The notes: a model not told the origin generated them from the sequence alone. A stretch of 64,000 nt of DNA from an uncultured Thermoleophilia bacterium (GCA_963707335.1 CAVPQD010000016.1:815-64814), one strand, 5' to 3'; shown: positions 1 through 42,204, counted from the stretch's first letter. Numbers and translations are program-made.

Positions 1-3912
<3,912 letters not shown>

Positions 3913-5478: not shown

Positions 5479-6326
5479 GACTCCTCCTTCGCCCACGCCG
5501 CGAACCTCTCGTGCTCGCCGTCGAGCATGCGGTAGCAGTGCTGCTCTTCTGGGAAGAGACCGCCGCGCACGTCCGCGACGTAGTCGCTGAGCGCGGCGGT
5601 CGCCACCCCGGCCAGATCGGCGTACTTCTTCACGAACTTGGGCGTGAACGCCTGGAAGGTGCCGAGCACGTCGCTGACGATGAGCAGCTGTCCGTCGACA
5701 TCATCGCCGGCGCCGATGCCGAGCACCGGGATGGGCAGCTCGGCCGTGATGAAGCCGGCCACTTCCGGGGGCACGGCCTCGAGCAGCAGGAGCTGGACTC
5801 CCGCCTCGTAGAGCGCCCGGGCGTCCTCGACGACGAGCCTCGCCGACTCCAGGGTGCGGCCTTGAGCCTTGTGGCCGCCGAGCTGCCCGGAACTCTGCGG
5901 CGTCAGGCCGATGTGGCCGCACACCACGATGCCGGCGTCCAGGATCGCCTTCACGCGGCTGAGGACGCGGGCGCCGCCCTCGAGCTTGATCGCGTCGACG
6001 CCGGCCTCCTTGAGGAAGCGCCCGGCGTTGCGCACCGCTTCCTCGTCCGAGACCTGGTAGCTCATGAACGGCATGTCGCCGACGACGAACACGTCGGGCG
6101 CCCCGCGCCGCACGGCCTCGCAGTGCACGATGCACTGGTCCATGGTCACCGGGACGGTGCCCTGATAGCCGTACACGCACATCCCGAGCGAATCGCCGAC
6201 CAGGATCATGTCCACGCCGGCGGCCTGCTCGAACGTCGCTGTGGGGTAGTCGTAGGCGGTGAGCCAGGTGATCTTCTCGCCCGTCTGCTTCATCTGATGA
6301 AGCTCGAGGACCCCTCTTCTTGCCAT
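5475..6326 (-). CDS. panB: 3-methyl-2-oxobutanoate hydroxymethyltransferase
   Basis: 283 aa. Contains KITWLTAYDYPTA, ILVGDSLGM, VVGDMPFMSYQ, AIKLEGG and GHIGLTPQS, typical PanB motifs. Confidence 0.93.
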   Translation of the reverse strand: MARRGVLELHQMKQTGEKITWLTAYDYPTATFEQAAGVDMILVGDSLGMCVYGYQGTVPVTMDQCIVHCEAVRRGAPDVFVVGDMPFMSYQVSDEEAVRNAGRFLKEAGVDAIKLEGGARVLSRVKAILDAGIVVCGHIGLTPQSSGQLGGHKAQGRTLESARLVVEDARALYEAGVQLLLLEAVPPEVAGFITAELPIPVLGIGAGDDVDGQLLIVSDVLGTFQAFTPKFVKKYADLAGVATAALSDYVADVRGGLFPEEQHCYRMLDGEHERFAAWAKEES

Positions 6327-12549: not shown

Positions 12550-13761
12550 GACTGCGCCCACTGCTTCAGCTTACCCAGGCCCTCCTCGATCTCCGCGACC
12601 TCGATGCCGGAGTAGGCGAAGCGGACGTAGTGCTCGGCCTCGCCAGGCAAGGCGCGGCCGAAATGCAGACGGGTGCAGAAACTGACGCCCGTCTGCTCCA
12701 GGGCGCCGCGCCGCAGCTCGTCGTAGCTGCCGAAGCCCTTCTGCTTCATCAGGCCGGTGACGTTGGGGAACAGGTAGAACGTGGCCTCGGGCTTGAAGCA
12801 GCGCACGCCGGGGATTTCGTTCAACAGCCGCACGGCGGCGTCGCGGCGCTCCTTCAGTGTCTCGACGATGCGTCGCGGCCCCGACTGGTCGCCGGTGAGT
12901 CCCTCGAGCGCCCCGTACTGGATGAAATGGTTCGAGCATGACTCGTCGTTCACGTTGAGCTTGGCGATGACGTCGATGTACTCGGACGGCCCGATGGCGG
13001 CCCCCAGACGCCAGCCCGTCATCGCGAACTTCTTGGAGAACGTGTAGAGGATGACGGTGCGCTCGGCCATGCCGGGCAGCGAGGCGATGGACCGGCTGGC
13101 GCCGGAGTAGCGGATGTCCCAGTAGGCCTCGTCGCTCAGCACGACGAGGTCGTGGGCGAGTGCCAGCTCGGCCAGGCGCTCCAGCTCCGCCGCCGAGCTT
13201 TCGGCGCCGGTCGGGTTCTGCAGGTTGTTGAAGATCAGCAGGCGCGTCCTGGGCGTGATCGCGCTTTCGAGCTGGTCGAAGTCGAGCTCGAAGTTGTCGG
13301 CGCCTTCGACGTAGCTGTAGGGCTTGGCGATGCCCCCATGGAACTCGATCTGGCTCTCGTAGATGGGGTAGCCCGGGTTCGGGTACAGCACCTCGTCGCC
13401 CGGGTCCATCAGCGCCAGGATGAACTTGCCGATGACCGGCTTGCCGCCGGGTTGCGATGGCCACGTTCTGCGGGGCCAGCTCGAGGAGATGCGAGGCGCC
13501 GACGTCTGCGGCGATCGCCTCGCGCAGCGGCATGATGCCGGCATTGGGGCAGTAGCCGGTCTTGCCGTCGCGGATGGCCTTCTCGGCGGCGTCGACGATG
13601 TTCTGCGGTGTGGGCAGGTCCATGTCGCCCAGATGGAAGGGGTAGACCCTGTGTCCCTGGTCGCGCCATTCGTTCGCCTCCGCCGACACGGCGAACGCCG
13701 TCTCTGTGCCAAGGCGCGCGATTCGCTCGGCGACACCGCGGGTGCGCGCAAACGACGTCAT
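12546..13761 (-). pseudogene. Class I/II (aspartate/alanine-type) PLP aminotransferase with one frameshift near 13450
   Basis: The N-terminus MTSFARTRGVAERIARLGTETAF...YCPNAGIMPLREAIAADV is in one frame. GGKPVIGKFILALMDPGDEVLYPNPGYPIYE...YTFSKKFAMTGWRLG...RFAYS is in the next frame. ATG 13761 overlaps the upstream stop (ATGA). Confidence 0.85.
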
Positions 13762-14981
13762 TGCTGAGCCTCCTGTCCGAGGGCGGCGGCGCCGCCAGGT
13801 CGTGTCCTGCAAGCGGGGTCGTGCGCGGGGGTGCAGGTTGGCAGCCCCAGGGATGTGGCGTTGACGATGCTCGGCGCCGCATGCGGCGGCTCGCCTTCGA
13901 GGAAGGGCAGGACGTCCTCCAGGGTGTCCGACTTCGGCCACACCGGGAAGCCTTGCAGCACGCCGGCGACGTTGGCCGCCGCGAGTGTCGCCATGCCCTC
14001 GCGCGTCCAGCGGGATGCTGAGCCCAGGTGCGGCACGATCACGACGTTGTCCAGTTCCGCGAGGCCCTGCGCCATCGCCGGCTCCGCCTCGTACACGTCG
14101 AGCGCGGCCCTGAAGTGCGGGTGCGCACGGCAGTGTCGGACCAGCGCCGCCTCGTCGATGAGCGGGCCGCGGCTGGCGTTCACAAGGATCGCGCCCTGCT
14201 TCATGAGAGCGAGCTGCGCCGCGCCGATCATGTGGCGCGTGGTCTGGTTGAGGACGGCGTGGATGCTGACGACGTCGGCGGCCCTGAGCAGCTCGTCGAG
14301 CGAGCCGGCACGGCGGCACGTGACCGGCGGCTCGCCGTGGGTCTCGAGCAGAGCGGCATAGTCGGCCACATACGCCTCAAGCCCGTCGTTCACGTGCGGG
14401 TCGTGATAGAGCACGTCGGTCTTGTGGCCTTCCATCATCATCCGGGCGAAGGCCGTGCCGATGCGCCCCGCCCCGATCACGCCGATGGTGCAGCCGTATA
14501 GCAGATCGCCAAGGAGCAGCTGCGGCAGCCAGCCGTGATAGCGGCCGGCCCGCATGAAGCGGTCGCCCTCGGGGATGCGCCGGGCCGCGGCGAACGCGAG
14601 AGCCACCGCCAACTCGGCCGTCGTCTCGGTGAGCACGCCGGGCGTGTTGCCCACGGGCAGCCGCAGCCCGGTCGCCGCCTCGATGTCGACATTGTCGTAG
14701 CCGACGGCGTAGTTGCAGTACACGAGACCGCCGGCCCGCTTGAGCGTTTCGAGCAGGCCGGCCGACCAGGCTTCGGGCAGCTGGCCGATGGCTCCGTCCG
14801 CGTGGTCGCCGATGGCGGCGCGGATCTCGCCCTCGGACAGGATGTCGTCACCTTGCGCGACCTCCACCCTGCAGTCCGCAGCTTCCAGGAGCCGCTGCCA
14901 GCGATCGCCTGGCAGCTCCTTGGTCACCAGGACGCGGCGCGAACCGTCGGGGTTGACGACCCGCCATTCTCTCCCTGACAC
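13758..14981 (-). CDS. D-isomer-specific 2-hydroxyacid dehydrogenase, glycerate dehydrogenase / hydroxypyruvate reductase type with a long C-terminal extension
   Basis: GTG 14981 lies 7 nt after AAGGGGG. Contains the NAD fold GVIGAGRIGTAFARMM, NASRGPLIDEAAL and HLGSASRWTREGMA. The C-terminal PHAAPSIVNATSLGLP resembles the tail of plant-type HPR1 (from memory). Confidence 0.8.
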   Translation of the reverse strand: MSGREWRVVNPDGSRRVLVTKELPGDRWQRLLEAADCRVEVAQGDDILSEGEIRAAIGDHADGAIGQLPEAWSAGLLETLKRAGGLVYCNYAVGYDNVDIEAATGLRLPVGNTPGVLTETTAELAVALAFAAARRIPEGDRFMRAGRYHGWLPQLLLGDLLYGCTIGVIGAGRIGTAFARMMMEGHKTDVLYHDPHVNDGLEAYVADYAALLETHGEPPVTCRRAGSLDELLRAADVVSIHAVLNQTTRHMIGAAQLALMKQGAILVNASRGPLIDEAALVRHCRAHPHFRAALDVYEAEPAMAQGLAELDNVVIVPHLGSASRWTREGMATLAAANVAGVLQGFPVWPKSDTLEDVLPFLEGEPPHAAPSIVNATSLGLPTCTPAHDPACRTRPGGAAALGQEAQQ

Positions 14982-15005
14982 CTCGCTCACCCCCTTAACG
15001 TCGAA

Positions 15006-15035
15006 GGACAGGGCGATGTCTCCATCACCCTGTCC
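15006..15035 (-). promoter_or_regulatory. Hairpin between the riboswitch aptamer and the RBS; probable expression platform (terminator/anti-terminator element)
   Basis: Minus strand ggacaggg-tgatggagacatcg-ccctgtcc. It sits 43 nt 3' of the aptamer and about 10 nt 5' of the AAGGGGG RBS. Confidence 0.45.
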
Positions 15036-15078
15036 GCCGTGGGGCGCCCAGGCGTCCCGCGTCTTCAGGGGCCCGTCC

Positions 15079-15178
15079 GGTCGCGTTCCGTTTGCCTGAG
15101 AGTTTCGGCGACACATCCGTGCCGCCTTGCCCCTTCGGCGCTCGCCCGCGCCGCTGCGCGGCGAGCTCTCGCGCGACC
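15079..15178 (-). promoter_or_regulatory. Glycine riboswitch, single canonical aptamer, in the 5' leader of the hpr-aminotransferase-gcvT-glyA operon
   Basis: Read on the minus strand. P1 is ggucgcg...cgcgacc. Then come CGAGAG and the P2 hairpin cucgcc..ggcgag. The conserved CGCCGAAGGGGCAA lies at plus-strand 15127-15140. The P3 hairpin is ggcggcac-ggau-gugucgcc. The conserved CUCUCAGGCAAACGGAA lies at plus-strand 15091-15102. Confidence 0.8.
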
Positions 15179-15360
15179 TTCTGCCGGGCGTCCTCGGTTC
15201 GCGCCGAGCCTACCACCGGCGGCTGGGGGGCCGCAACGCAGCACGGCCGGGTGATGACGACCCTCGTCGTTCCTCCATACCCATATCCGGGCACGCCGTC
15301 GCGGGTGTATGGTGAGGTGGAGTCACCGTCTGTCATCGTCAGGCGGGAGGGGGTCCCACC

Positions 15361-25242: not shown

Positions 25243-25318
25243 TGGTGGAGCATAGCGGATTCGAACCGCTGACCTCCTGGGTGCGATCCAGGCGCTCTCC
25301 CAACTGAGCTAATGCCCC
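25243..25318 (-). tRNA. tRNA-Ala, anticodon CGC
   Basis: 76 nt: GGGGCAUUAGCUCAGUUGGGAGAGCGCCUGGAUCGCACCCAGGAGGUCAGCGGUUCGAAUCCGCUAUGCUCCACCA. It folds as a cloverleaf with the G3:U70 alanine identity pair, a GUUCGAAUC T-loop and an encoded CCA. Confidence 0.95.
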
Positions 25319-27780: not shown

Positions 27781-27954
27781 GTGACGCGCGAAGAGAAGGA
27801 CAGGGCGGTCGACAAGGTGCTGGCGAGATACAAGCACCTCGGCGCGACGATCGTCGCCGACGATCAGACGCTGTGTCGCCTCCTGCGGATGCTCGAGTTC
27901 TCGAACTCCGACAGGGACGTGGGCGAGTATCTCTGCTCCTTCCTCACCGCCTGA
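27781..27954 (+). CDS. Small ORF (57 aa) with a very strong RBS, below the ORF-track size cutoff; unknown function
   Basis: GAAGGGAGGAGGG-cgac-GTG. The translation is VTREEKDRAVDKVLARYKHLGATIVADDQTLCRLLRMLEFSNSDRDVGEYLCSFLTA*. Third codon positions are mostly G/C. It is followed by the short hairpin gcccc-tgacc-ggggc at 27961-27975. Confidence 0.4.
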   Translation: MTREEKDRAVDKVLARYKHLGATIVADDQTLCRLLRMLEFSNSDRDVGEYLCSFLTA

Positions 27955-27993: not shown

Positions 27994-30900
27994 TCAGCGG
28001 CTCCTCACCTCGCCCGACAGGACACGTTCGAACGCCGCCGCGAGGTGGCGGTCGTCACGCAAGGCGGGGCAGTTGAGCAACTCGTCCAGGGCCTCGGCCT
28101 CCGACAGCTGCTCGCGGTAGGGACGCTCCGCGACCATGGCCTGATAGGCGACCGCCAGCTCCACCACCTCGCGACCCGTCCCGGTCAAGCCCCGCGGCGA
28201 GTCTGTCTCGGCCAGCGAGGCCATGGCCCGCAGGTCGCGACCGTCCAGGCCCAGTTCCGAGGCGACCGCCTGGGCGAGATGCGCGACGGCGTAGCGGCGA
28301 CGCCGCTCATAGGCGTCGCGCGCGGCCACCAGCTCCGACATGGCCGCCACGTAGCTCGACGTCACGGACGCCGCCTGCTCCGGCGTGTCGGTGCCGTGCT
28401 GGGCGCTGAAGCTCATGACCTGGTCACGCCCGCGCCGTTTGGCGAGGTACATGGCCCAGTCGGCCTTGTCGATGAGCTCCTCCTTGAACATGGCGTCGGC
28501 GGGGCACGAGGCGACACCGATGCTGATCGACAGCGAGTCGGCAGCCGCTACCTTCGCCCCGAGGATGCCGGCGCGGATGCGCTCGGCCACCTCGAGGGCG
28601 CCTTGCTCGTCGGTGTCGATCAGGATGGCGGCGAACTCCTCGCCGCCGAAGCGGGCCGCTATGTCCACGTGGCGTATCGAGCTCTCGATGACGCGCGCCA
28701 CCGCGCGCAGGGCCTCGTCGCCGGCGCTGTGGCCGTGGACCTCGTTGAAGGCGCGGAAGTTGTCCAGGTCGCAGAACAGCAGTGACACGCGGCCGTCCTG
28801 ATCCAGGCAGCGCTCGATCTCTTCGCTGAGCCGCTCGTGGAAGTAGCGGTGGTTGTAGAGGCCGGTCAGACCGTCCGTGATGGCCTCGATCTCCGAGCGT
28901 CCCGCCTGCACGGCGGCTGTGTGCAGCATGGACGCAAAGGCCTGGGCCACACTGCTGCGGAGCCCTTCGAACTCGCCGATCTCCTCGGTCGCCGGGATGT
29001 CCGCGGTCACGGCCGCCACCACGCGGCCGTCCTGGTCCAGCACCGGCGCCGTGCCGCTGATCCAGACGCCCCACTGGTCCACGAAGAGCACGTTGACGTC
29101 CAGGTCGCGGCCGGCGAACACTTCGACGAGCTCGTCGTCGGTGAGCACCTCGTCGCCGATGCGCGGCTTGCCCGGGCCATCTTGACCGGAGTCCACGACG
29201 ACCACGGTCTTCTTCCCGATGCGCACATGGGAGCTGATGAAGCGCGTCGGCGGGTTGGCGACGCAGACCTCGCGGAACGCCTCGAGGATGTGTCCGTATT
29301 CGGGGCGCTTCTCATCGCCCGGCGACCTCAGCCGCGCGTGCTCCTCCGGGTCGACGCGGGCGGCCGCATCCCTCGCGACCTGTCGCGCCTGCTGTCGTCC
29401 CTCGGCGAGCCGCCGGAGCACGGCGATGAACGAGTCGACCATGTCCGGGTCGAACTGCGTGCCGCGGCAGCGCTTCAGCTCGGCGAGGCACTCCTCGTAG
29501 GACAGCCCTTGGCGGTACGGGCGGCGGAAGGACATGGCGTCATACGAGTCCACCACGCACATCGCGCGAGCGATGAGCGGGATGTCCTCGCCCGCCAGGC
29601 CGTCGGGGTAGCCGCCGCCCTCGTAGTGCTCGTGATGGTGACGCACGCCGAGCACGAGCTCGTCGGAGAACAGCGAGCGGATGATGTCCGCGCTGAAGAT
29701 CGGGTGCTGGCGCATCAGCTCCCACTCGCGCGCATTGAGGCCGCTCGGCTTGAGCAGCACGCGGTCCGAGACCCCGATCTTGCCGATGTCGTGCAGGTAC
29801 GCCGCCTCCTCCACCTGGCGGAGCAGGTCGACCGGCCAGCCGAGCGCTTCGCCGAGCAGCACCATGTAGGCGGCGACGCGGGCGGCGTGGCCCAACGTGT
29901 AGTAGTCCTTGGCGTTCAGCGCCGAGCTGAGCGCCTTCAGGTTGCTCAGGTGCAGGTGCTTGATGTCCTCGTACATGCGGGCGTTGTCGATGGCCAGGGC
30001 AAGATGGGTGCCGGTCCGCTCCAGGAGGTGCCGGTCCACCGTCTCGAACGTGGACGGCGCCAGGGAGCCGAGGCTGAGCACGCCGATCAGCTCGGTCCCC
30101 TTGGTCAGTGCGATGAGCGCCGCCGAGCGGAGCTCATCGACGCCGGGCAGCTCGAAACCGGCCGGCAGGTCGGCAGGCAGCGCCAACGCGATGACCTTCT
30201 CGTCGCGAAGACGTCCAAGCAGGCCGTTGGCCATCGGGATGCTGAGCGTCTCGGGCACGGCGCTGGAGCGGGGCTGCGTGACGTAGGCCACGTCGAACGT
30301 CTGGTCGTCGCGTCTGAGCGCCACGAGGCCGCGATCGAAGGGAGTGATCCGCCGCAGCTTATCGATGGCGGCGGCGGCGATGTCCGGCAGGTTGAGGCTG
30401 GCGCTGGTGGCCCAGGCGATCTCGTTGAGCAGCTCGTTCTCGCGGTTGCGCAACTGCAGGTTCTCCACGAGGTTGGCGTTGTCGATGGCCAGGGCGGCGA
30501 CGCGGCAGACCGCGGACACCGTGTCGATCTCTTCCGGGGAGAAGCTGCGCGGGCTCCGGCGGTCCAGCAACTCGAGCACGCCGATGACGCGCTCCTTGGA
30601 GATGAGCGGCACGGCGAGCTCACTCGTCTCCCCATACGACTCCATGAGGGCGCGTTCATCGGGCAGAAGGAGCGGATCGTCGAGCGTCTCGATGCTCACC
30701 GGTTGCCGCGTCTCGACGGCACGGCGCAGGGTCGCCCAGCCCTCGAGCGGGAACGAACGACCCTGCCACTCGTGGTCGATCTTGCCGTCGGCGACGCTCA
30801 CCACGTCCACCAGCGTGTCGCCCTGCAGGGTGTAGATGTCGCACATGGGCATGTCGGCCACGGCGCAGAGCCTGTTCGCCGTGGAGCGCAGCACCTCGCC

Positions 30901-33900
30901 CAGGTCCAGCGATGACGACAGCTCGTAGCTCACGTCCGTCACCAGCGCCATGCGGTCGGCGCTGCGGTCGAGGCGCTCGAAGAGCGTCGCGTTGGCCAGC
31001 GCGTTGGCGGCCACCTGAGCCAGGCTCTGCAGCAGGTCGAGGTGCTCGAAGTCCCGCGGATGGTCGTCGTAGATCGCGGCGATGCCGACGACCTGTCCGC
31101 GGCTCACCAGAGGCAGCTCAAGCTTGGCGCGGTGGCCCCATCGCAGATCCTCGTCGCGCTCGTGTGTCGACAAGCGAGCGTCCTCCGCGATGTCGGTCAC
31201 CAGCAGCGGCTCCTGCGTGCGGACCGCGCCGCTGCTGAGCGGCAGGTCGGCGAGCGGGTACACGGTGCCGACGTATGAGGCGTCCGCCGTGCCCTTGTCG
31301 ACGCAGGCGACGCAGCGGAACTCGTCGTCCTGGATCGTGTAGATGTCGCAGTTGGGCGCGTCGGTGACCGCGCAGAGTCTGCGCGCCACGCTCTGGAGGA
31401 CGGGGTCGAGCTCCAGCGTGGCGCCGAACTCGAGGCCAGATTCCACGAGCAGATTCAGCATCGCATTGCTCTGCTCGAGTCGCTCCAGCAGCAGCGCGTT
31501 CTCGAAGGCGCCGGCCAGCGTCTGGGCGGCATTGACCAGGAAGTCGCGGTACTCCGCGTAGTCCCGCCGGCGGGTGTCATAGACTTCGAGCAGGCCGACC
31601 ACGCGGTCTTCCACGGCCAGCGGCACGCAGATCTCGCTCGCTGAGGCCGATTCGCGATACAGCTCGCGTTCGTAGTCGCTCAGGCGCTCATCATCGGGTG
31701 ACGGGATGACGAGCACCTCGCGCCGCTCGAGAGCGTCGCGCGTGCTCGGGAACTGGTCGAGGTCCAGGGGGCGGCCGACGTAGTCGTCCTCATACACGCC
31801 GTTCTCGTAGGTGAGGACGCAGCGCAGCCGCTCGTGCTGCAGCGTGAAGAGCTGGCAGCCGGCCGCGCCCATCAGTTCGACGATGCGCGGCCCCACCGAC
31901 CGGACCATGTCGTCCAGGTCCACTGTGCCGGAGACCGCCCGGCCGAGCTCGACAAGCTCCGCAAGGGCCGCGTTGCGCCGCTCGAGCTCGTCCACGAGCA
32001 GCGCATTCTCGATGGCCCCGGCAGCCATCTGCCCCACGCTGCGCAGGTAGTCGAGAAACGCGGCGTAATCGCGCGGCTTCGTGTCGAACACGTCGATGAG
32101 GCCGATGACGCTCTCGCCTACGACGAGCGGGATACACAGTTCGCTCTGGAACCCGTATGCAGCGTAGTTCTCGCGCTCGTAGGCCGTGAGCCGAGGGTCG
32201 CCCAGACTCGAGATGATCATCGGCTCGCCGGAGTGCACCGCCATGGCCGTGGCCGGGAAGCGGTCCACGTCCAGCACGTCGCCGACCACCCGCTCATCGA
32301 AGCCGTTCAGATCGGCGCTGACCAGGCAGCGCAGCTGGTCGCCCTGCAGCGTGAAGATGTCGCAGTCGGCCGCCTGGATGGTGTCTCGCAGCCGGGCGGC
32401 GATGGTCCTGAGAAGCTCCTGGGGGTCGTGGGTCTGTGACGTGATCGCGCCAAGCTCCACGATCTCACGCAGCACGTTGGTCCGCTGCTCGATCTGCCCG
32501 AACAGGATGGAGCTCTCCAGCGCGCCGGCAAGCGTCTGTCCGACGCTGCGCAGGAAACCCAGGTACTCGGTGTAGTCGCGCTCGCGCGTGTCGTACATGT
32601 CGATGATCCCGTACAGGCGGTCGTTCACCACCAGCGGGATGCACACTTCGCTCGCGAAGCCGTACTCCCGGTAGATGCGACGCTCGCTCTCGCTGAGCTT
32701 CGGGTCGTCGTAGCCGTTGATGACGAGCACCTCGTGGGCGTTCATGGTGGTGACGAGCGTGGGGTAACTGTCCGGGTCCAGGATCCGGCCGACCGGCTGG
32801 TCGTCGAACCCGCTGCGGTCGTAGCTCGCCACGCACTGCAACCCCTCGGCGCTCACCTGGAAGATGTCGCAGTTCGCCGCATCGATCGCCCTGAGCAGGC
32901 GCTCCGCCATGCGCCTAACCAGAGCGTCGACGTCGCGGGAGCGGCTGGCCAGGGCGCCGAGGTCGACGAGTTCGTTGAGGATGCGGCTGCGTCGCTCCAC
33001 CTGATCGAACAACGTCGCGTTCTCCAGAGCATGAGCGGCCACCTGGCCGAGGCCGCGGATGAGCTCGAGCTCGGCGTCGAAGTCGCGAGGGACGTAGTCT
33101 GACAGTTCCACGAGGCCAAGCACGCGGCCGGCGGCGATCAACGGCATCGAAAGCTGCGACTGGTAGCCCCACTTCTCCAGGGAATAACGACCGTCTGGGC
33201 CAAGTACAGGATCGTCCAGGCTGGCCGCCACCGCGATCTCGCCTGTCTCCGCCGCGCGCCTGCTGCACGGATACCGTGACAGCGGGATGACGACACCTTC
33301 CCACTCGTCATCGAAGGCTCCGCCGTCGAAGCTGACGAGAGCACGCAGCGTGTCGCTTTCGACCGCGTAGATATCGGCCACGGGGGAGTGGGTCAGCTCC
33401 GCGAGGCGTCGGACGACCGAGTGCAGCACCTCGTCGGTGCTGAGACGCGCCGTGTCCTCGAGACCCGCTTCGATCACCAGCGCAAGGTCCCGGTTGCGGC
33501 GCTGCAGACGGTCGATGACGTCGCCGCTGCCCAGCGCCGCGGCAAGGCTGTCCGCAACGACATCCAGGATCGGCCGCCACGAGTCGAGGCCGGCGGGCTG
33601 CGCCGTGCCGGCCTCCAGGAGGCCGACCACGCTGTCGCCGTACCGGAGCGGACGGAAGGTCGCACCGGTCAGGCCGCGATCTTCCAGGAAGCGCCGCGTC
33701 GCATCATCTAGGCCTGGGCCGCCGGTCACCGCGACCGTCGCACCGCCGGCGATGGCCTCGGCCGCCGCCGCCGGTGCGCCGAGGGTGAGGCTCTCGGGCA
33801 CGGGCCGGCCGGCCGGCGACCAGGCAGTCGGCACGAGGCGCGCGTCCTGGAGATGATAGAGCGTGCAGGAGCAGATGTCGGGGTGTTCGGCGAGGGCGTC

Positions 33901-35232
33901 CAAAGAAGCATGGACGAGCGCCTCAGCGTCCGTCTGCAACGCGTGTCCGGCGAGATCGGCGACGATCCCATCGAGCCATGCCAGACGCCGCGACAGCATG
34001 GCTTCATCCCTGCTGTCAGCCAGCGCCAGGGCGCCCACGGCGGCGGCGGCCTCGATAAACGCGAGCTCGCCCGGCTCATAGCTCGTGTCACTCGCGCTGT
34101 AGACCTCGAGCAGTCCGACCGGCTCGTTGCCCAGCCGCAGACCCGCTCTGACGACGCGGATGGCCTGGCTCGGCCCGCGGCGCGCCGGTGCGCCCGCCGC
34201 GGCGGGTTCGCTCTCCGGCAGGAGCCACTCGACCGGCTGTCCGCCGGCGATGATCGCCGTGAGTCCGTCGACAGCGGCGGCATCGTAGACAAGGCCCTCG
34301 GTGGCGGGCGTCTCGTCGGAAGCGGCCACGAGCAAGGTCACGGTCCCATCCGCAGGGTCATACGCCGAGATGTCGCATGCGAGAGCGCCGAGCTCGGTGC
34401 GCAGGCGTTCGCCGAGCGCACGCAGCAGGCGCAGCCGATCGATCGGACCGGCCGTGTCTGGCGGCGACACGACCACGGGTGGCGCCGGGGCGACCGACAG
34501 AGCCACGGCGGGATCGAGCGCCGGGACCTGATGCGGCGGCGCTCCGCGGTCGTCGCCCGCAACAAGGTCGCCGGCTTGGCGCGCAACGAATTCGGCGAAC
34601 GCGACGTTGGCGCCGGTGAAGGAGCGCGCTCCACCGCCCTCAGCCAGCTCCATGACGCCGGAGATGCGCCCCGCGCTGATCATCGGCAGCGCCAGGATGG
34701 CCCTGTGGCCGCGCCGGCGATAGGTCTCGGCAGCCGCCGGCGGCACCAGGTTCGTGGCGTCGAGATCGGCGATGACCATGCGTCTGCCCGTGCGCAGCAC
34801 CTCGCGGGCGACCCAGTCATCCTGCGCGCCGGCCGATCCGCTGTCGCGCGCCATGCCGTCGCGGCCGTAGTCGCCGGCGACGATGAAGGTGTGATCGCCC
34901 GTCGTCAACAGGAATCGGCAGGAGCCCACACCCACGCCGTCCGCAGCGAGACGCGCCATCGTGGAGAGCGGAGCCTGCAGCCGGGCCGGCTCCCAGCCCC
35001 CGGGGTGGCGCGCCTCGTTCGCGACGTGAAGAGGCGGGTCGCCGGCGGTCTGCGCGCAAAGGAGCGTCTCAACATCGCGACGACGGTACCGGCGGTGACC
35101 GCCGGGACTGCGGTAGCAGGTGAGCTTGCCTGCGTCGCTCCAGCGCCGCAGGGTGTTGATGCTGATGCCGAGGAGCGCCGCCGCCTCACTCAGGCGCAGC
35201 CAGCTATCTCCGTCCGCGCGACCGATCCTCAT
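27994..35232 (-). CDS. Giant multidomain c-di-GMP signalling protein (2412 aa): MerR-type HTH, about 10 tandem GAF domains, HD-GYP, an unassigned sensor-like domain, GGDEF, and a degenerate HD-GYP-like tail
   Basis: ATG 35232 lies 5 nt after GGGGAG. The HTH is LRLSEAAALLGISINTLRRWSDAGKLTCYRSPGGHRRYRRRDVETLL. GAF units recur about every 170 aa. The HD-GYP motifs are HDIGK (29779-29793) and HHHEHYEGGGYPDG. The GGDEF domain has GGEEF (28633-28647) with an RHVD I-site 5 residues upstream. The ORF is uninterrupted over 7.2 kb. Confidence 0.9.
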   Translation of the reverse strand: MRIGRADGDSWLRLSEAAALLGISINTLRRWSDAGKLTCYRSPGGHRRYRRRDVETLLCAQTAGDPPLHVANEARHPGGWEPARLQAPLSTMARLAADGVGVGSCRFLLTTGDHTFIVAGDYGRDGMARDSGSAGAQDDWVAREVLRTGRRMVIADLDATNLVPPAAAETYRRRGHRAILALPMISAGRISGVMELAEGGGARSFTGANVAFAEFVARQAGDLVAGDDRGAPPHQVPALDPAVALSVAPAPPVVVSPPDTAGPIDRLRLLRALGERLRTELGALACDISAYDPADGTVTLLVAASDETPATEGLVYDAAAVDGLTAIIAGGQPVEWLLPESEPAAAGAPARRGPSQAIRVVRAGLRLGNEPVGLLEVYSASDTSYEPGELAFIEAAAAVGALALADSRDEAMLSRRLAWLDGIVADLAGHALQTDAEALVHASLDALAEHPDICSCTLYHLQDARLVPTAWSPAGRPVPESLTLGAPAAAAEAIAGGATVAVTGGPGLDDATRRFLEDRGLTGATFRPLRYGDSVVGLLEAGTAQPAGLDSWRPILDVVADSLAAALGSGDVIDRLQRRNRDLALVIEAGLEDTARLSTDEVLHSVVRRLAELTHSPVADIYAVESDTLRALVSFDGGAFDDEWEGVVIPLSRYPCSRRAAETGEIAVAASLDDPVLGPDGRYSLEKWGYQSQLSMPLIAAGRVLGLVELSDYVPRDFDAELELIRGLGQVAAHALENATLFDQVERRSRILNELVDLGALASRSRDVDALVRRMAERLLRAIDAANCDIFQVSAEGLQCVASYDRSGFDDQPVGRILDPDSYPTLVTTMNAHEVLVINGYDDPKLSESERRIYREYGFASEVCIPLVVNDRLYGIIDMYDTRERDYTEYLGFLRSVGQTLAGALESSILFGQIEQRTNVLREIVELGAITSQTHDPQELLRTIAARLRDTIQAADCDIFTLQGDQLRCLVSADLNGFDERVVGDVLDVDRFPATAMAVHSGEPMIISSLGDPRLTAYERENYAAYGFQSELCIPLVVGESVIGLIDVFDTKPRDYAAFLDYLRSVGQMAAGAIENALLVDELERRNAALAELVELGRAVSGTVDLDDMVRSVGPRIVELMGAAGCQLFTLQHERLRCVLTYENGVYEDDYVGRPLDLDQFPSTRDALERREVLVIPSPDDERLSDYERELYRESASASEICVPLAVEDRVVGLLEVYDTRRRDYAEYRDFLVNAAQTLAGAFENALLLERLEQSNAMLNLLVESGLEFGATLELDPVLQSVARRLCAVTDAPNCDIYTIQDDEFRCVACVDKGTADASYVGTVYPLADLPLSSGAVRTQEPLLVTDIAEDARLSTHERDEDLRWGHRAKLELPLVSRGQVVGIAAIYDDHPRDFEHLDLLQSLAQVAANALANATLFERLDRSADRMALVTDVSYELSSSLDLGEVLRSTANRLCAVADMPMCDIYTLQGDTLVDVVSVADGKIDHEWQGRSFPLEGWATLRRAVETRQPVSIETLDDPLLLPDERALMESYGETSELAVPLISKERVIGVLELLDRRSPRSFSPEEIDTVSAVCRVAALAIDNANLVENLQLRNRENELLNEIAWATSASLNLPDIAAAAIDKLRRITPFDRGLVALRRDDQTFDVAYVTQPRSSAVPETLSIPMANGLLGRLRDEKVIALALPADLPAGFELPGVDELRSAALIALTKGTELIGVLSLGSLAPSTFETVDRHLLERTGTHLALAIDNARMYEDIKHLHLSNLKALSSALNAKDYYTLGHAARVAAYMVLLGEALGWPVDLLRQVEEAAYLHDIGKIGVSDRVLLKPSGLNAREWELMRQHPIFSADIIRSLFSDELVLGVRHHHEHYEGGGYPDGLAGEDIPLIARAMCVVDSYDAMSFRRPYRQGLSYEECLAELKRCRGTQFDPDMVDSFIAVLRRLAEGRQQARQVARDAAARVDPEEHARLRSPGDEKRPEYGHILEAFREVCVANPPTRFISSHVRIGKKTVVVVDSGQDGPGKPRIGDEVLTDDELVEVFAGRDLDVNVLFVDQWGVWISGTAPVLDQDGRVVAAVTADIPATEEIGEFEGLRSSVAQAFASMLHTAAVQAGRSEIEAITDGLTGLYNHRYFHERLSEEIERCLDQDGRVSLLFCDLDNFRAFNEVHGHSAGDEALRAVARVIESSIRHVDIAARFGGEEFAAILIDTDEQGALEVAERIRAGILGAKVAAADSLSISIGVASCPADAMFKEELIDKADWAMYLAKRRGRDQVMSFSAQHGTDTPEQAASVTSSYVAAMSELVAARDAYERRRRYAVAHLAQAVASELGLDGRDLRAMASLAETDSPRGLTGTGREVVELAVAYQAMVAERPYREQLSEAEALDELLNCPALRDDRHLAAAFERVLSGEVRSR

Positions 35233-35331
35233 GTGCTCCCCAGGAGTCGTGATGACTCTGAAGTTCATCAATTCTCAGGGAGAACCCTTGTCCTGTGTCG
35301 ACCCAGGTGAGCAGATTGGGGGAGACTTCGC

Positions 35332-35363
35332 CGCCTGGGCAGGCTAGTCAGCCTGCCCAGGCG
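35332..35363 (-). terminator. 14-bp perfect hairpin 42 nt downstream of the mrp stop
   Basis: cgcctgggcaggct-agtc-agcctgcccaggcg. It separates mrp from the promoter region of the giant gene. Confidence 0.6.
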
Positions 35364-35404
35364 GCAGCGTTGTCAGGCGCGCCTACGCTTGTCGCCGTAC
35401 GCTG

Positions 35405-37380: not shown

Positions 37381-38454
37381 TCAGGCCTTCAGACCGACAG
37401 GCTCGGGGTTGCCGGCGCCCGTGGCGTAGGTCTCCTTGAAGATCTCCATGAGCATCGGGCTCTCGCGCACGACTTCGAGCGAGATCACCGCGTGGTCCTT
37501 GGTGTAACCGTTGCCGATGATCATGAGCGTGTCCGCGCCGATGCCCTCAGCGCCAAGGGCCGCGGACGTGAAGCTCGTGGCCATGCTGAAGAAGTAGACC
37601 GTCCCGTCGTCCTTGGTGGCGAGGACCGAGGCCATCTCGGTGTTCGGGATGTCGACGCAGTTGATGGTGAGGTCTGCCATCTCGCCGTTCGTGGCCTTCT
37701 TGACCTCGTCGTAGACGAACAGCTGGTCGGTCGCCGAGCCCTGGATGATGACGTCCGCGAAACCTGCCTTCTCGAGGCGCTTCTTGCCGGCGTCGCCGTG
37801 CACGAGGCAGATGACCTTGCCGGTGGGCTTGACGCGCTTCTTGGCCTCGTAGGCGCAAAGCAGGCCGCTCTTGCCGCCGGCGCCGATGATGAACACGGTC
37901 TGACCCGGCTTGCTGAGCTTCGCGGCCTGAGCCGGGGCGCCCGCCACGTCGAGGATAGCCAGCGCGAGCGCCTCGTCCATGTCGGCCGGCATCTTCGCGT
38001 AGATGCCGGTCTCGAACAGGATCGCCTGCCCCTTCACCTTCACCTGGCAGGTGTCCTTGTTGACCGAGATGACCTCATCGACCTTGAGCGGCGTCAGGGA
38101 GAGAGACACGAGGGTGGCGATGCGGTCGCCGACCTTGAGATCACGGTCCTTGAGCTTGGGGCCGATCTCCTTGATCGTGCCGAGCAGCATGCCGCCCGAG
38201 CCTGTGTCGGGATTGTGATGCTTGCCGCGCTTCGCGATGATGTCGAGGCTGTGTCTGGCCATCTTGTGCACGTCGCCGCCCTCGGCCTCCTCGATCTGCG
38301 TGAAGCTCGCCGCGTCGATGTTGAGTGTGTCGACCTCGATGAGGAGCTCGTTGTCGTAGATCTCCATGGTGTTGTCGATCTTCCACGCCGGCTGCGGCAG
38401 CACGCCCTTGGGCTCGAGGACCCTGTGCGCGCCGAACTTGTTGCCTTCCTTCAT
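37381..38454 (-). CDS. kdd: L-erythro-3,5-diaminohexanoate dehydrogenase
   Basis: ATG 38454 follows GGGGAGGGAG. The protein is about 357 aa. Contains NKFGAHRVLEPKGVLPQPAWKIDN...LLIEVDTLNIDAASF...HHNPDTGSGGMLLGT...FIIGAGGKSGLL. This matches my recollection of Kdd, and the gene sits next to kamDE. Confidence 0.8.
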   Translation of the reverse strand: MKEGNKFGAHRVLEPKGVLPQPAWKIDNTMEIYDNELLIEVDTLNIDAASFTQIEEAEGGDVHKMARHSLDIIAKRGKHHNPDTGSGGMLLGTIKEIGPKLKDRDLKVGDRIATLVSLSLTPLKVDEVISVNKDTCQVKVKGQAILFETGIYAKMPADMDEALALAILDVAGAPAQAAKLSKPGQTVFIIGAGGKSGLLCAYEAKKRVKPTGKVICLVHGDAGKKRLEKAGFADVIIQGSATDQLFVYDEVKKATNGEMADLTINCVDIPNTEMASVLATKDDGTVYFFSMATSFTSAALGAEGIGADTLMIIGNGYTKDHAVISLEVVRESPMLMEIFKETYATGAGNPEPVGLKA

Positions 38455-38551
38455 GTCCGCTCTCCCTCCCCGTCGAGGCAACAGCCCGCGCGCGGTCGGC
38501 TCACACGGCCTTCGCGCGCGGGCTCTCGTCCTCGATCCCTGGCTGTTCCGG

Positions 38552-39748
38552 TCAGCCTTCTACCTTGATGATCGAACCGGCGCCCTGGCCACCGCCCACG
38601 CAGGCGCCCGTGAGGCCGATCTCGTGGCCGCGCTTCTTCAGCTCGTGGATGAGCGTGACGATCATGCGCGTGCCGGTGTTGCCCAGCGGATGACCGAGCG
38701 CGACCGCCCCGCCGTTGACGTTGACGATGTCGGGGTCGAGTTCGAGCTCGCGCATGGCGAGCGCTGCCACGCAGGCGAACGCCTCGTTGAGCTCGACGAG
38801 CTGCACGTCTTTGACCGTGAGCCCAGCCTTGTCGAGAGCCTTCTGGGCGGCTACGGTCTCGCCGAAGCCCATGATCGCCGGGTCCACGGCCGCCGTCGCA
38901 TAGCTGACGAGCTGAGCGATGGGCTTGAGACCAAGCTCGTCCGCCTTCTTGCGCGACGTCACGACCAGCGCGCTGGCGCCATCGGCGATGGCCGAGGCGT
39001 TGCCGGCCGTCACCACGCCGCCGTCCTTCTTGAACACGGGCTTGAGGCCGGCGAGGGCCTCCGGCGTCGTCTCGCGCGGGCACTCGTCGGTGTCGACGAT
39101 CTTGGGGTCGCCCTTGCGCTGCGGGACCACGACCGGCACGATCTCGTCCTTGAACCTGCCGCTCTTGACGGCCGCGGTCGCGTTGAGCTGGCTCCTATAG
39201 GCGACCTCGTTCTGCAGCTCCTTGCTGATGCCGAAGCGCTCGCTGAGGTTCTCGGCGGTGACGCCCATGTGGGTGCCGTCGACGCCGCACCACAGCCCGT
39301 CCAGGACCATCGCGTCGAACATCTGCTCGGACGGCATGCCCATGCGGTAGCCGCTGCGGCCGTTCAGCAGCAGCCACGGCGCGCGCGTCATGTTCTCGGT
39401 GCCGCCGACGAGGTAGATCTCGCCGTCTCCGGCCTTGATGGCCGCCGCGGCCATGGCGAGCGCCGAGGCGCTCGACACGCACACGCGGTTGACCGTGATG
39501 GCCGGGACGGTCTCGGGGATGCCGGCCTTCAGTTCGGCCTGGCGGGCGGGGTTCTGACCCAGTCCGGCCTGGATGACGTTGCCGAAGATGACCTCGTCCA
39601 GCTGCTCGCCTTTGACGCCGGCGCGATCCAGCGCCTCTTTCATGGCGATGGCGCCCAATTCCTGGGCCGGGGTGGTGGCGAACCCGCCCTGGAAGCGCCC
39701 TTGGGCAGTGCGGACGGCCGACAGGATGACTACATCGTTCTCAGACAC
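38552..39748 (-). CDS. Acetyl-CoA C-acetyltransferase (thiolase II)
   Basis: 398 aa. Contains VNRVCVSS (active-site Cys region), [15 protein letters not shown] and CVGGGQG. Confidence 0.92.
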
Positions 39749-39856
39749 TCTTGTCCTCCTCGTGTCTCTGCGTGTACGTCTGCAGCCCCCGCCGCGAGAT
39801 CACGCTCTGCATCTGGACACAGGTTGATGATGGTGTTTCTGGTTGATGGTACGTCG

Positions 39857-40591
39857 TCAGGCCCGCTGATGCCGACGGACGACCTCCTGGGCCATGAACG
39901 ACGCCACTTCGAGCGGCGTGGTCCGCGGCCCGAAGCCGGCGTCGTAGCCGAGTTCCTTGGCGAACGCGTTGCTGATGCGCGGGCCGCCGACGATGAGCAC
40001 GAAGCGCTCGCGCACACCCTCGGCCTCGAGCAGCTCGATGAGCTGCGTGAGGTGCTGCACATGGATGTCCTTCTGCGTGACGATCTGCGACACGAGGATG
40101 ACGTCCGCGTGCCGCCCGAGCGCAGTCTTGAGCAGCTGCGCGCAGGGGATCTGCGAGCCCATGTTGAGCGCATCCATCTCCGGGTAGCGCTCCAGCCCGT
40201 AGTTCCCGGCGAAGCCCTTCATGTTCATGATGGCGTCGATGCCCACGGTGTGGGCGTCGCTCTCGATGGCGGCGCCGACGACGACCAGCTTGCGGCCCAG
40301 CTTCTCCTTGATGAGGCTGTTGATGGCGTAGTAGTCCATCTCCTCGACCTCAAGGTAGTCGCCTTTCACCTCGTCCGGGTCGATACCGACGTCCGTGCGC
40401 CCGTAGGCGACGTAGAAGGTGTACGAAGGGTCGATGGCTTTGCACTCGGCGATGCCCACGGTGTGGAAGCCGATCTTCTCCAGGAACTGCTTGCCCACGT
40501 CGGCGGCCTTGACCGAGTAGGGGACGGGCAGGGTGAAGGAGAACTGGACGACACCGTCATCACGAGTATCACCATACGGTCTAACTAGCAT
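39857..40591 (-). CDS. kamE: Beta-lysine (D-lysine) 5,6-aminomutase beta subunit, B12-binding
   Basis: ATG 40591 lies 5 nt after AAGGGGG and overlaps the end of kamD. Contains LVRPYGDTRDDGVVQFSFTLPV and the cobalamin-binding domain with the DxHxxG-like ESDAHTVGID. Confidence 0.85.
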   Translation of the reverse strand: MLVRPYGDTRDDGVVQFSFTLPVPYSVKAADVGKQFLEKIGFHTVGIAECKAIDPSYTFYVAYGRTDVGIDPDEVKGDYLEVEEMDYYAINSLIKEKLGRKLVVVGAAIESDAHTVGIDAIMNMKGFAGNYGLERYPEMDALNMGSQIPCAQLLKTALGRHADVILVSQIVTQKDIHVQHLTQLIELLEAEGVRERFVLIVGGPRISNAFAKELGYDAGFGPRTTPLEVASFMAQEVVRRHQRA

Positions 40592-42204
40592 CAGTGCCCC
40601 CTTCACTCGTCGGACCGGGGCCGGCGGCGGGTCCCACGGGTGCGCCGCTCATGCGCCCGTCGCGCAGCGCCGCGAAGAACGGGTTGAAGTAGTCGTCGCT
40701 GACCTTGAAGACGCCCTCGTAGCCGCGGCCCCCCCGCGGGTCGCGCTTCACGTCGGCGAACTCGCCGTCCTCCAGGGCCTTGAACAGGCCGATCTCCGTG
40801 ACGTGTTCGAGCTGCTCGACCGCTTTCCCGAGCTGGTCGTTGGCCCGCCGCTCGATGACGCCGCCTGCCTTGAAGGCGACCTCGTCGGCGAGGTCGCGCG
40901 CCCCTTCGAACACGTACTTTGCGTTCTTGATGGAGAGGTAGCGGTCCTGGAGCAGAGGGGTGTGCAGGGCCTCCGTGAGCATGCCGAGGAGCATGATCTC
41001 CTGGCCCGTGAAGATGCCGGTGAAGTTGAACATGCCGTCGATGATGTGCCCCTGGAAGATGTCGCCGGGCATGTACTTGGTGGGCGGCATGTACTTGAGC
41101 GGATAACCGGGGAACAGTTGCCGGATGAGCTGCGCGTCGGCGATCTGGTAGACGACCTGATCGGGCATCGAGGGGTCGATCTCGAACGCATGCCCCAGGC
41201 CGATCTGCCACGGCTCGAGGTTGGCGCGCAGGGCGAAGGCCTCGTTGATGAAGTCCGAGCTGACGACTGTGTAGCCCTTCTCGAAGGCGTCCGCCGTAGT
41301 CAGATAGTTGTCCTCGCCGGTGTTGATGATGATGCCGGCACGCGCGTTGATGAGTCGCGACAGGTACTGGTCGACGAACGTGCGCTGCATGTTGATGTTG
41401 CGGAAGATGATCCCGTACATCGAGTCGTTCAGCATCATGTCCAGCCGCTCGAGAGCGCCCATGGTCGCGATCTCGGGCATGCACAGGCCGCTCGCGTAGT
41501 TACACAGGCGGATGTAGCGGCCGAGCTCGTCGCCGACCTCGTCCAGGGCCGCACGCATGAGCCGGAAGTTCTCCTGGGTGGCGTACGTGCCGCCGAAGCC
41601 CTCGGTGGTCTCGCCGTACGGCACGTAGTCCAGCAGGCTCTGCGCCGTGGTGCGGATGACTGCGATCACGTCCGCACCGGCGCGGGCCGCGGCCTTGGCC
41701 TGCTCCGCGTCCTCGTAGATGTTCCCGGTGGCGACGATGACGTACACGTATGGCTTGCGCGGCTCTCCCGTGTGCGCGACAAGCTCGTTGCGTCGCCGGC
41801 GCACCGCGTCGACGCGGGAGACGCCCTCGCGGGCGAGCTCCCCGGCGCGCGCCTCTGCGGCGGCGCGCCGGTCCGCCGGCACCGGCTCGAGCGTCAGTTC
41901 GCCGGCCGACACGCCCTGAGCCACCTGCTGTGCGGTCTTGCCGGTCGCGCAGCATGAGGTCGACGAAAGGCCGCATGATACCGCCGGGCAGCAGATCGCG
42001 CGCGTGCTCGACCACGACGTTCACGAGCGGCACGTCGATCTCGTTGACCCCGACGATGCCGAGAAGGCGCAGCGTGGCGCGCTCGGTCGTGTCCGTCGTG
42101 TGCTCCTCGATGTGCTGCTGGATGTCATCGGCGATGGCGTCCGCCGCCGCCCGGGCGCGTTCGACCAGGCCGGCGTCCAGCTGGAGCGCGTTGTTCACTT
42201 CCAC
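40581..42204 (-). pseudogene. kamD: Beta-lysine (D-lysine) 5,6-aminomutase alpha subunit, one frameshift near 41945
   Basis: The N-terminal 90 aa (MEVNNALQLDAGLVERARAAADAIADDIQQHIEEH...RPFVDLML) are in one frame. GKTAQQVAQGVSAGELTLEP...TGNIYEDAEQAKAAARAGADVIAVIRTTAQSLLDYVPYG...INTGEDNYLTTADA is in the next. Confidence 0.85.

Follow-up and report, generated by a model that had tools for sequence, protein, structure and literature searches.

The gene and its product

The sequence analysed here is a stretch of 64,000 nucleotides from an uncultured Thermoleophilia bacterium [GCA_963707335.1, CAVPQD010000016.1:815-64814], which is referred to below as the window. A gene on its minus strand at 27994..35232, consisting of 2412 codons and a stop, encodes a very large protein, the megaprotein, in which a BldC-like helix-turn-helix (HTH) is followed by ten GAF domains, an HD-GYP phosphodiesterase domain, a Cache-like sensor module, a GGDEF diguanylate cyclase domain and the remnant of a second HD-GYP domain, and which is predicted both to make and to break cyclic di-GMP (c-di-GMP). 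A preliminary description had recognised a single uninterrupted 7.2-kb gene at this position with a five-part plan. The open reading frame (ORF) of 2412 amino acids (aa) is indeed intact, and a whole-protein Pfam scan supports the HTH, GAF, HD-GYP and GGDEF calls. The five parts stand, and the C-terminal HD-GYP remnant is a sixth that had been overlooked.

An ORF scan of the window gives 27994..35271 as the longest minus-strand frame, which is TTG-initiated. The ATG at 35232, which is preceded by the Shine-Dalgarno sequence GGGGAG and yields the 2412-aa product, was taken as the start because it matches the N-termini of orthologues (MR[VI]G[RK]A..WL). The window gene carries this Shine-Dalgarno sequence in its leader (35233-35256), whereas the leaders of the orthologues at loci L002-L042 are C-rich (…CCTCC…CCCC…) and have no Shine-Dalgarno-like sequence before the same ATG, a contrast suggesting that the mode of translation initiation may differ between the window gene and its orthologues. 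The G+C fractions at the three codon positions (0.73/0.46/0.89) are typical of a genuine gene in a window of 70% G+C. The gene is probably monocistronic, with mrp/apbC and a terminator-like hairpin upstream and convergent genes downstream. No transmembrane segment was found in the megaprotein, which is therefore taken to be cytoplasmic.

Six central GAF units repeat in an exact 507-nt register, and P0001, the closest relative at 89% identity, is cut short at 2073 aa with a tail that resembles the product of a frameshift. Both features could point to an assembly chimera, or to a repeat collapsed or expanded among similar GAF units. However, the six units are just 64-75% identical in DNA, and the longest exact repeat within the gene is 21 nt. 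Moreover, three independent full-length orthologues (2387, 2422 and 2412 aa, with 67, 62 and 58% identity, respectively) cover 100% of the query, full-length orthologues carry all ten GAFs in an order that matches unit by unit, and synteny of the locus extends to about 20 genomes. An assembly artefact was ruled out on the basis of the DNA-divergent repeats, the colinear full-length orthologues and the syntenic locus, and a chimeric or rearranged ORF is considered extremely improbable.

The BldC-like helix-turn-helix

Coordinates of the domains described below all refer to the minus strand. A BldC-type winged HTH occupies aa 6-61 (35050..35217), with Pfam matches at aa 11-61 to HTH_17 (1.3e-11) and MerR (1.8e-9). 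This is the segment previously placed at aa 24-70, the two ranges agreeing once a 13-aa offset in numbering is allowed for. Classical MerR regulators continue from the HTH into a coiled-coil helix for dimerisation and then into an effector-binding domain at the C-terminus. The megaprotein does not share this plan, as the match to MerR_1 covers only positions 2-47 of the 69 in the profile and a GAF comes next. The nearest solved relative of the HTH is BldC of Streptomyces [PDB 6ama] (E 2.2e-9), with which the residue register is identical.

In BldC, the DNA contacts and the interface involve residues R30, W31, G44, H46, R47 and R48, DNA binding is lost in the mutants R30A, G44E and H46E, and AATT is the minor-groove target of the wing (PMC5859096). 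These six residues are shared in register by the N-terminal 60 aa of the megaprotein, as are T27 and E16, and the HTH is accordingly a predicted DNA-binding domain. BldC itself [PDB 6AMA/6AMK] is a stand-alone MerR-like developmental regulator of 68 aa that forms head-to-tail multimers on AATT-N4-C direct repeats, whereas the HTH described here heads a 2412-aa enzyme.

The GAF array

The earlier estimate of about ten GAF modules proved exact. Pfam GAF_2 matches ten stretches in the whole megaprotein, and an iterated hidden Markov model (HMM) built from the megaprotein's own units delimits all ten envelopes. When the segments were scanned singly, 8/10 passed the Pfam gathering score. GAF 1 (aa 89-225, 34558..34968) matches GAF_2 at 3.6e-10 when scanned alone. 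The two units that fall below the threshold, GAF 2 (G2; aa 261-416, 33985..34452) and GAF 3 (G3; aa 430-580, 33493..33945), are divergent, with full-length matches of about 23 bits (GAF_2 23.3 bits, E 8e-5, and GAF_3 22.9 bits, E 1.3e-4, respectively). GAF 4 to GAF 9 (aa 593-1596, 30445..33456) form a run of six units with a constant length of 169 aa (507 nt), in each of which a GAF is followed by a helical linker of about 30 aa. GAF 10 (aa 1610-1760, 29953..30405) directly precedes the HD-GYP domain, as does the GAF of PmGH.

Each unit is 55-83% identical to the unit in the same position of orthologues, and only 27-45% identical to its neighbours in the same protein. G4, which is 75-83% identical to unit 4 of ten-GAF orthologues, is the most conserved. 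Since positional orthologues are far closer than neighbours, the array is ancient with each unit maintained individually, and a recent tandem amplification was ruled out. Relatives have between 4 and 10 GAFs, a variation due to the loss or gain of particular units.

The GAFs are predicted to sense ligands. Searched against the PDB, a G4-G9 profile gave only generic GAF matches (best E 1e-7), which also include the GAF of PmGH. A conserved Cys (CDI[FY], E[LVI]C[IV]PL) is present in G5-G8; the pattern is not uniform and no redox or metal claim is made for it. Long GAF arrays also occur in histidine kinases of 1750-3030 aa (P0066-P0091; GAFn-HisKA-HATPase-REC, PF11849), so that arrays of great length are not confined to the megaprotein family.

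The catalytic domains and the module between them

The HD-GYP domain, a predicted phosphodiesterase, spans aa 1767-1930 (29443..29934), over which the Pfam HD_5/HD match has E 1.7e-30 (HD_5 106.5 bits, cut-off 27.2; HD 58.7 bits). The signature residues can be read directly as H1782, HD at 1814-1815, H1843, HHE at 1866-1868, GYP at 1874-1876 and D1895. In the motif HHExxDGxxGYP, represented here by HHEHYEGGGYP at aa 1866-1876, the D is replaced by E, at a position that varies across the family. The best solved relatives are V-cGAP3 [5z7c] (3.5e-38), PmGH [4mcw] (6.3e-35) and PA4781 [4r8z] (1.1e-26), and the His/Asp ligands are all kept in an alignment with these three. The preliminary call of an HD-GYP domain with HD and GYP motifs intact is thus borne out by Pfam, by direct reading and by the structural relatives, and the domain is predicted to hydrolyse c-di-GMP.

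Between the HD-GYP and GGDEF domains lies a module at aa ~1950-2085 (28978..29385) that has no match to a Pfam family. It had been described as a sensor-like module of roughly 120 aa without assignment. A Foldseek search with a 473-aa C-terminal model was dominated by GGDEF matches and uninformative for the flanking modules, and the module was therefore modelled alone. The AlphaFold2 model is confident (predicted local distance difference test, pLDDT, 87; predicted template modelling score, pTM, 0.85) and consists of a long N-terminal helix and a PAS-like five-stranded sheet. Its top Foldseek matches in the PDB are the sCache/dCache sensors of chemoreceptors and CitA PASp (E 2e-5 to 1e-3; template modelling score, TM, 0.53-0.79). 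A profile search of 1.84 billion proteins retrieved 3912 representatives, 639 of them at E<=1e-10. In these relatives the module is N-terminal, ahead of HAMP-GGDEF, HisKA or cyclase outputs, or elsewhere forms arrays behind TrmB/MarR-type HTHs, and their Pfam matches in this region are confined to sub-threshold sCache_3_3, Cache_3-Cache_2 and PDC. The module itself falls outside the curated Cache sequence models. From the predicted fold we conclude that it is a divergent single-Cache/PDC-type sensor, cytoplasmic in the megaprotein; the earlier description was right as to its presence, and its length is about 130 aa. In four further proteins of 760-1250 aa (P0113, P0116, P0117 and P0151), 5-8 tandem Cache-like modules are found behind an N-terminal TrmB/MarR-type winged HTH, which appears to be another uncharacterised HTH/sensor-array architecture.

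A helical linker at aa 2086-2116 (28885..28977), ending in a ITDGLTGLYNHRYF lead-in, leads from this module to the GGDEF domain. It corresponds to helix 155-183 of the C-terminal model and has low pLDDT as a monomer. The GGDEF domain, a predicted diguanylate cyclase, covers aa 2117-2271 (28420..28884) and scores 139.9 bits with PF00990 (E 8.5e-41) and 162.9 bits with TIGR00254. The sequence RHVD-IAARF-GGEEF at aa 2187-2200 includes the I-site RHVD (2187-2190) and the active-site GGEEF (2196-2200), and both the intact GGEEF and the RxxD I-site of the preliminary description are therefore present. The Asn and Asp of the guanine pocket (FNE...GDE) are canonical, within CDLDNFRAFNEVHGHSAGDE at aa 2154-2173, and the modelled domain superposes on solved GGDEF domains with a root mean square deviation of 1.6-2.4 Å. 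The domain is predicted to synthesise c-di-GMP from GTP.

V-cGAP3, which among solved structures is closest in sequence to the HD-GYP domain, is a Vibrio cholerae phosphodiesterase for cyclic GMP-AMP (cGAMP). It has a tandem layout of degenerate and active HD-GYP domains and shares with the megaprotein a Tyr at the position of the third-metal Glu of PmGH. If the megaprotein HD-GYP likewise acted on another cyclic dinucleotide (e.g. 3'3'-cGAMP), the protein would link two second-messenger systems. However, the c-di-GMP phosphodiesterases PmGH and PA4781 score nearly as high, and no cGAMP synthase context was seen within the window. Hallberg and co-workers are said to have found in 2016 that cGAMP-making Hypr GGDEFs carry Ser/Thr in place of the canonical Asp; the fused GGDEF has this Asp (GDE), which argues for synthesis of c-di-GMP rather than cGAMP. 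Action of the HD-GYP domain on another cyclic dinucleotide is considered very unlikely.

The C-terminal end of the protein, aa ~2295-2412 (27997..28350), is a remnant of a second HD-GYP domain, to which Pfam HD_5 gives a weak match (E 5.8e-4) over profile positions 131-159. Alignment with P0064, with the megaprotein's own HD-GYP domain and with PmGH shows that the first and last helices are retained (…RPYREQLSEAEALDELL…; RPYR..SEAEAL.ELL), and that a core of about 65 aa with the HD, HHE and GYP motifs has been deleted. In a phmmer search with the remnant, the matches fall towards the C-terminal end of HD-GYP domains in relatives. All nine relatives inspected have a full-length second HD-GYP domain after the GGDEF, and in 9/9 the HD dyad is RD or CD, so that this domain had already become non-catalytic when the core was lost in the megaprotein lineage.

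Distribution and genomic context of the family

At least 65 protein clusters (90% identity) found in a homologue search share the Pfam architecture, with lengths of 1423-2440 aa and 4-10 GAFs. Their source names are only 'GAF domain-containing protein' or 'diguanylate cyclase/excisionase family DNA binding protein'. In GTDB species genomes, 75 loci encode relatives, nearly all of them in metagenome-assembled genomes of uncultured Thermoleophilia or Actinomycetota, with best identities of 57-67%. The organisms that carry family members are all uncultured. The architecture had been put forward as one not recognised as characterised; this holds in that no functional study was found in the searchable literature, but the megaprotein is not singular. 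The general plan of the family is [HTH]-GAF(0-10)-HD-GYP-Cache-like-GGDEF-[degenerate HD-GYP or remnant], in which the HD-GYP-Cache-like-GGDEF cassette is constant. Shorter forms with one GAF (~770 aa) are abundant, and the HTH is kept in nearly all long forms. Among 66 members, HD is present in 65/66 and HHE..G.GYP in 65/66, and the GGDEF motif is GGEEF in 55, GGDEF in 1 and GGQEF in 3, the rest being truncated. Such conservation of the motifs throughout the family points to selection on both active sites.

The gene order thiolase - 3,5-diaminohexanoate dehydrogenase - small ORF - Mrp/ApbC - [gene] - 57-aa ORF - arginase-family - MR_MLE makes up the synteny seen in about 20 genomes. A functional tie to the neighbouring Fe-S carrier gene mrp/apbC was considered and is unsupported beyond this general synteny. 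The 57-aa ORF (27781-27954, plus strand) is convergent with the megaprotein gene and lies about 40 nt past its stop. It has a GTG start, a GGAGG-type ribosome-binding site and a third-position G+C fraction (GC3) of 0.90, and is kept at 42-79% identity in the same position at 22 or more related loci; it belongs to no Pfam or NCBIfam family.

In at least 7 genomes a paralogue that lacks the HTH (5-6 GAFs-HD-GYP-Cache-like-GGDEF, 1385-1690 aa) is found in tandem directly upstream of the orthologue (e.g. L001:5590-10305 and L021:1693-5847; also L016, L024, L026, L032 and L042). No tandem or short-form paralogue and no c-di-GMP effector was found among the other large ORFs of the window.

In related metagenome-assembled genomes, paralogues of ~770 aa with the composition HTH-GAF-HD-GYP-Cache-GGDEF are preceded by a pattern, TGGCAGAG-N-TGGTCAAGAA-N10-16-CCGATAC, about 20-70 nt upstream of the matched start (L047, L048, L049 at 5950-5976, L052, L053, L055, L058, L061, L064, L067, L068, L069 and L071). 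It is absent from the window. The pattern resembles the flagellar/WhiG sigma consensus, in which the -35 is TAAA and the -10 is GCCGATAA (PMC8325347). If real, it would place short c-di-GMP enzymes under the control of a sigma factor that is itself controlled by c-di-GMP.

The upstream element and flanking signals

A conserved AT-rich element of 19 nt, AGAATTGATGAACTTCAGA, is found at 35257..35275 (minus strand), 24 nt before the ATG. Within its sequence are an AATT and the imperfect dyad AGAATT-N4-AACTTCT. When the leaders of the window gene and the orthologous loci are aligned, the element forms part of a block, GCAGGA(A/T)T-N6-7-AG(A/G)ATT(G/A)N(G/T)GAA(C/G)TTCNGA(G/A)CG, that ends 24-31 nt before the ATG. 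The core of the block is present as a single copy in the window, where 0 are expected by chance. Each of 12 GTDB loci has one copy, in every case a short way upstream of the orthologue that carries the HTH; this is so even where an HTH-less tandem paralogue lies upstream, and the element was not found before that paralogue. The same pattern has 34 matches in metagenome contigs, of which 4 are on high-G+C contigs, 3/4 of those being 27-28 nt upstream of an orthologue. The other 30/34 come from contigs with a G+C content of 29-61% (<=56% in all except one) and are taken as chance matches to an AT-rich pattern.

Its position and distribution, and the presence of AATT, the target of the BldC wing, make the element a good candidate for a binding site of the megaprotein itself, an autoregulatory operator, although it could equally be a promoter element. 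Its identification as an extracytoplasmic function (ECF) sigma factor promoter (GGAAC...CGT) or as a sigma-28 promoter was rejected, since neither the spacing nor the -10 region agrees with such promoters. Neither a sigma-70-type promoter consensus nor a T-tract terminator consensus was found at either end of the gene, and an Rfam scan of the window detected no family in the leader, its matches being a tRNA and a glycine riboswitch elsewhere.

The gene had also been thought to be insulated by hairpins at both ends. The upstream mrp/apbC gene ends at 35405, and a perfect 16-bp hairpin that is terminator-like (35330..35365, minus strand; z -4.8) follows its stop. The 3' arm of this hairpin, GCCTGC, is kept in orthologous loci. 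Downstream of the gene there is only a weak hairpin (z -2.1 and -0.8 for the two strands), and for that end the claim is overstated.

The megaprotein could instead be mainly a transcription factor of the trigger-enzyme type, in which the HD-GYP and GGDEF domains would chiefly sense c-di-GMP or GTP and set DNA binding by the HTH, the GAFs would serve as an oligomerisation scaffold or spacer, and the contribution to c-di-GMP levels would be minor. In favour of this are the conserved element before the gene, which resembles an operator, and the retention of the HTH in nearly all long forms. PdeL and PdeR provide a precedent (PMC5052742), and the degenerate second HD-GYP (RD/CD) of relatives suggests that non-catalytic sensing already exists in the family. 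However, both motif sets, including the I-site, are strictly conserved and would be needless in a pure sensor, HTH-less paralogues with the same cassette are common, which implies that the cassette works without DNA binding, and the element is seen at the gene itself only, with no regulon visible. We regard this explanation as rather unlikely.

Other features of the window

A cluster of the lysine-fermentation type is found at 37381-38559 (minus strand), 38552-39799 and 40581-42020, and includes L-erythro-3,5-diaminohexanoate dehydrogenase, a thiolase and the alpha subunit of D-lysine 5,6-aminomutase. Between genomes that share only ~57% identity in the megaprotein, identity of the diaminohexanoate dehydrogenase is 87-96%. 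A glycine riboswitch aptamer (15074-15183, minus strand; Rfam RF00504, 50.5 bits) overlies the 5' end of an ORF of the D-2-hydroxyacid dehydrogenase family (13758-15209), and a tRNA gene (25246-25318, minus strand; Rfam RF00005, 65.4 bits) is located between YetF-like and MR_MLE-family genes. The gyrA gene for DNA gyrase subunit A is at the start of the window (1366-3912, plus strand), which may therefore be near the chromosomal origin.

Proposed function

The megaprotein is more probably than otherwise a soluble, cytoplasmic, dimeric multi-input enzyme, predicted to make and break c-di-GMP, with an HTH that ties it to DNA. GGDEF domains are active only in dimeric form, under the control of the helix leading in, RxxD sites mediate product inhibition, and GAF-HD-GYP enzymes such as PmGH are sensor-gated phosphodiesterases. 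A soluble dimer with signalling through linkers is proposed from this known behaviour of the three families. The dimer would be parallel, as required for GGDEF catalysis, and conformational signals would run along the rod of GAFs and linkers to the HD-GYP domain, while the Cache-like module would signal via the aa 2086-2116 helix to the GGDEF. Together these signals would set net synthesis of c-di-GMP against net breakdown, and the cyclase would also be inhibited by its product through the RxxD I-site. The remnant of the second HD-GYP domain may be a non-catalytic helical bundle for packing or regulation. Through the BldC-type HTH the enzyme would be held on DNA, with the AT-rich element before its own gene as the likeliest site, so that expression, and possibly local c-di-GMP, would be coupled to the state of the enzyme by a logic of the PdeL type.

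Several points weigh against this assignment. The HTH scores 48.8 bits with NCBIfam HTH_BldC, which is under the cut-off of 77, and differs from BldC at three contact or interface residues (K26N, K33D and R22G). Because of this score, and because it stands at the N-terminus of a 2412-aa protein, it is called a BldC-like domain and not a BldC orthologue. The pairing of the HTH with the upstream element is indirect, the element could equally be a promoter element for another sigma factor, and no other target genes or regulon emerged in the metagenome-contig search. No ligand-specific GAF subfamily was identified by the profile search against the PDB, and the GAFs could be largely structural. In the HD-GYP domain, the third-metal Glu of PmGH, located by the numbering reported in Bellini et al. 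2014, aligns with a Tyr in both the megaprotein and V-cGAP3. Replacement of this Glu indicates that the metal centre is probably binuclear, and the product may be either pGpG or GMP. The searchable literature holds no functional study of the architecture, and no biochemical or genetic data for members of the family.

A further point against two working enzymes in one chain is that proteins with tandem GGDEF and phosphodiesterase domains typically have one domain inactive (PMC6205966). Taken with the GGQEF of three family members, this would favour a one-way enzyme with a single catalytic domain active in vivo, e.g. a net phosphodiesterase in which the GGDEF binds GTP or c-di-GMP allosterically. 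However, the megaprotein retains GGEEF, RxxD, the Asp residues that bind metal and the N and D of the guanine pocket, all of which are likewise intact in 56 family members, and in a census nearly all HD-GYP-GGDEF hybrids keep an intact GGDEF site (PMC2952852). A one-way enzyme is considered quite unlikely.

The enzyme that both makes and breaks c-di-GMP can be extended to a more specific and speculative proposal, which is doubtful as it stands. The megaprotein would be a single-chain, nucleoid-anchored equivalent of MlrA/DgcM/PdeR, in which a dimer sits on its own promoter element via two BldC-type HTHs and up to eleven distinct cytoplasmic cues, one for every individually conserved GAF and one for the Cache-like module, are converted into a local choice between making and breaking c-di-GMP that feeds back on its own transcription, forming a bistable, self-contained device in Thermoleophilia.

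Comparison with known systems

PmGH of Persephonella marina [PDB 4MCW] has the same layout of GAF and HD-GYP as GAF 10 and the HD-GYP domain of the megaprotein, but it has a single GAF and no HTH, Cache-like module or GGDEF, and it carries a third-iron Glu where the megaprotein has Tyr. In V-cGAP3 [PDB 5Z7C], and in domains of the YN-GYP type, a degenerate HD-GYP stands beside an active one, as in the relatives of the megaprotein. Unlike that of V-cGAP3, the degenerate HD-GYP of the megaprotein lies after the GGDEF and has lost its whole catalytic core.

The catalytic pairing is that of the HD-GYP-GGDEF hybrids, which account for 74/1034 HD-GYP proteins catalogued in 2010 (PMC2952852) and include DR_A0342 of Deinococcus radiodurans (PMC11219805). 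Most hybrids have intact GGDEF sites. Those catalogued mostly have PAS partners, and none has been described with an HTH, a GAF array, a Cache-like insert or a trailing degenerate HD-GYP; no biochemical characterisation of a hybrid was found in the searchable literature. Among actinobacteria, the mycobacterial GAF-GGDEF-EAL proteins MSDGC-1/DcpA and Rv1354c are also GAF-gated makers and breakers of c-di-GMP in a single chain (PMC2994820). They differ in having EAL in place of HD-GYP, one GAF and no DNA-binding domain.

The closest parallels for a link to DNA are in Escherichia coli, where PdeL binds its own promoter and MlrA, DgcM and PdeR form a module, both described along with the trigger-enzyme concept (PMC5052742). 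PdeL joins an HTH to a c-di-GMP phosphodiesterase that acts at its own promoter, and the megaprotein likewise has an HTH and a conserved element at its own promoter. However, PdeL combines a LuxR HTH with EAL, whereas the megaprotein combines a BldC/MerR-like HTH with HD-GYP, a cyclase in cis and eleven sensor modules. In the MlrA/DgcM/PdeR module a MerR-like factor works with a separate cyclase and phosphodiesterase, whereas the megaprotein holds all three in one chain.

Every domain of the megaprotein is already well known, and it is the combination that is new. Three of its aspects are undescribed in the searchable literature, namely the union of an HTH, a cyclase and an HD-GYP phosphodiesterase in one chain, a set of ten GAFs each individually conserved across species, and the fixed HD-GYP-Cache-like-GGDEF cassette. 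Conservation of the family within a lineage, the degenerate second HD-GYP and the promoter element are further new traits. HD-GYP/GGDEF hybrids have been catalogued since 2001 and are essentially unstudied.

Signalling by c-di-GMP operates in Thermoleophilia through the RsiG-WhiG switch (PMC8325347), and apart from this it is essentially unstudied in what is an early-branching class of the actinobacteria. The megaprotein family is noteworthy for c-di-GMP specialists as it bears on DNA-anchored, autoregulatory c-di-GMP enzymes beyond PdeL, and on the transmission of signals from long sensor arrays to two opposing catalytic domains.

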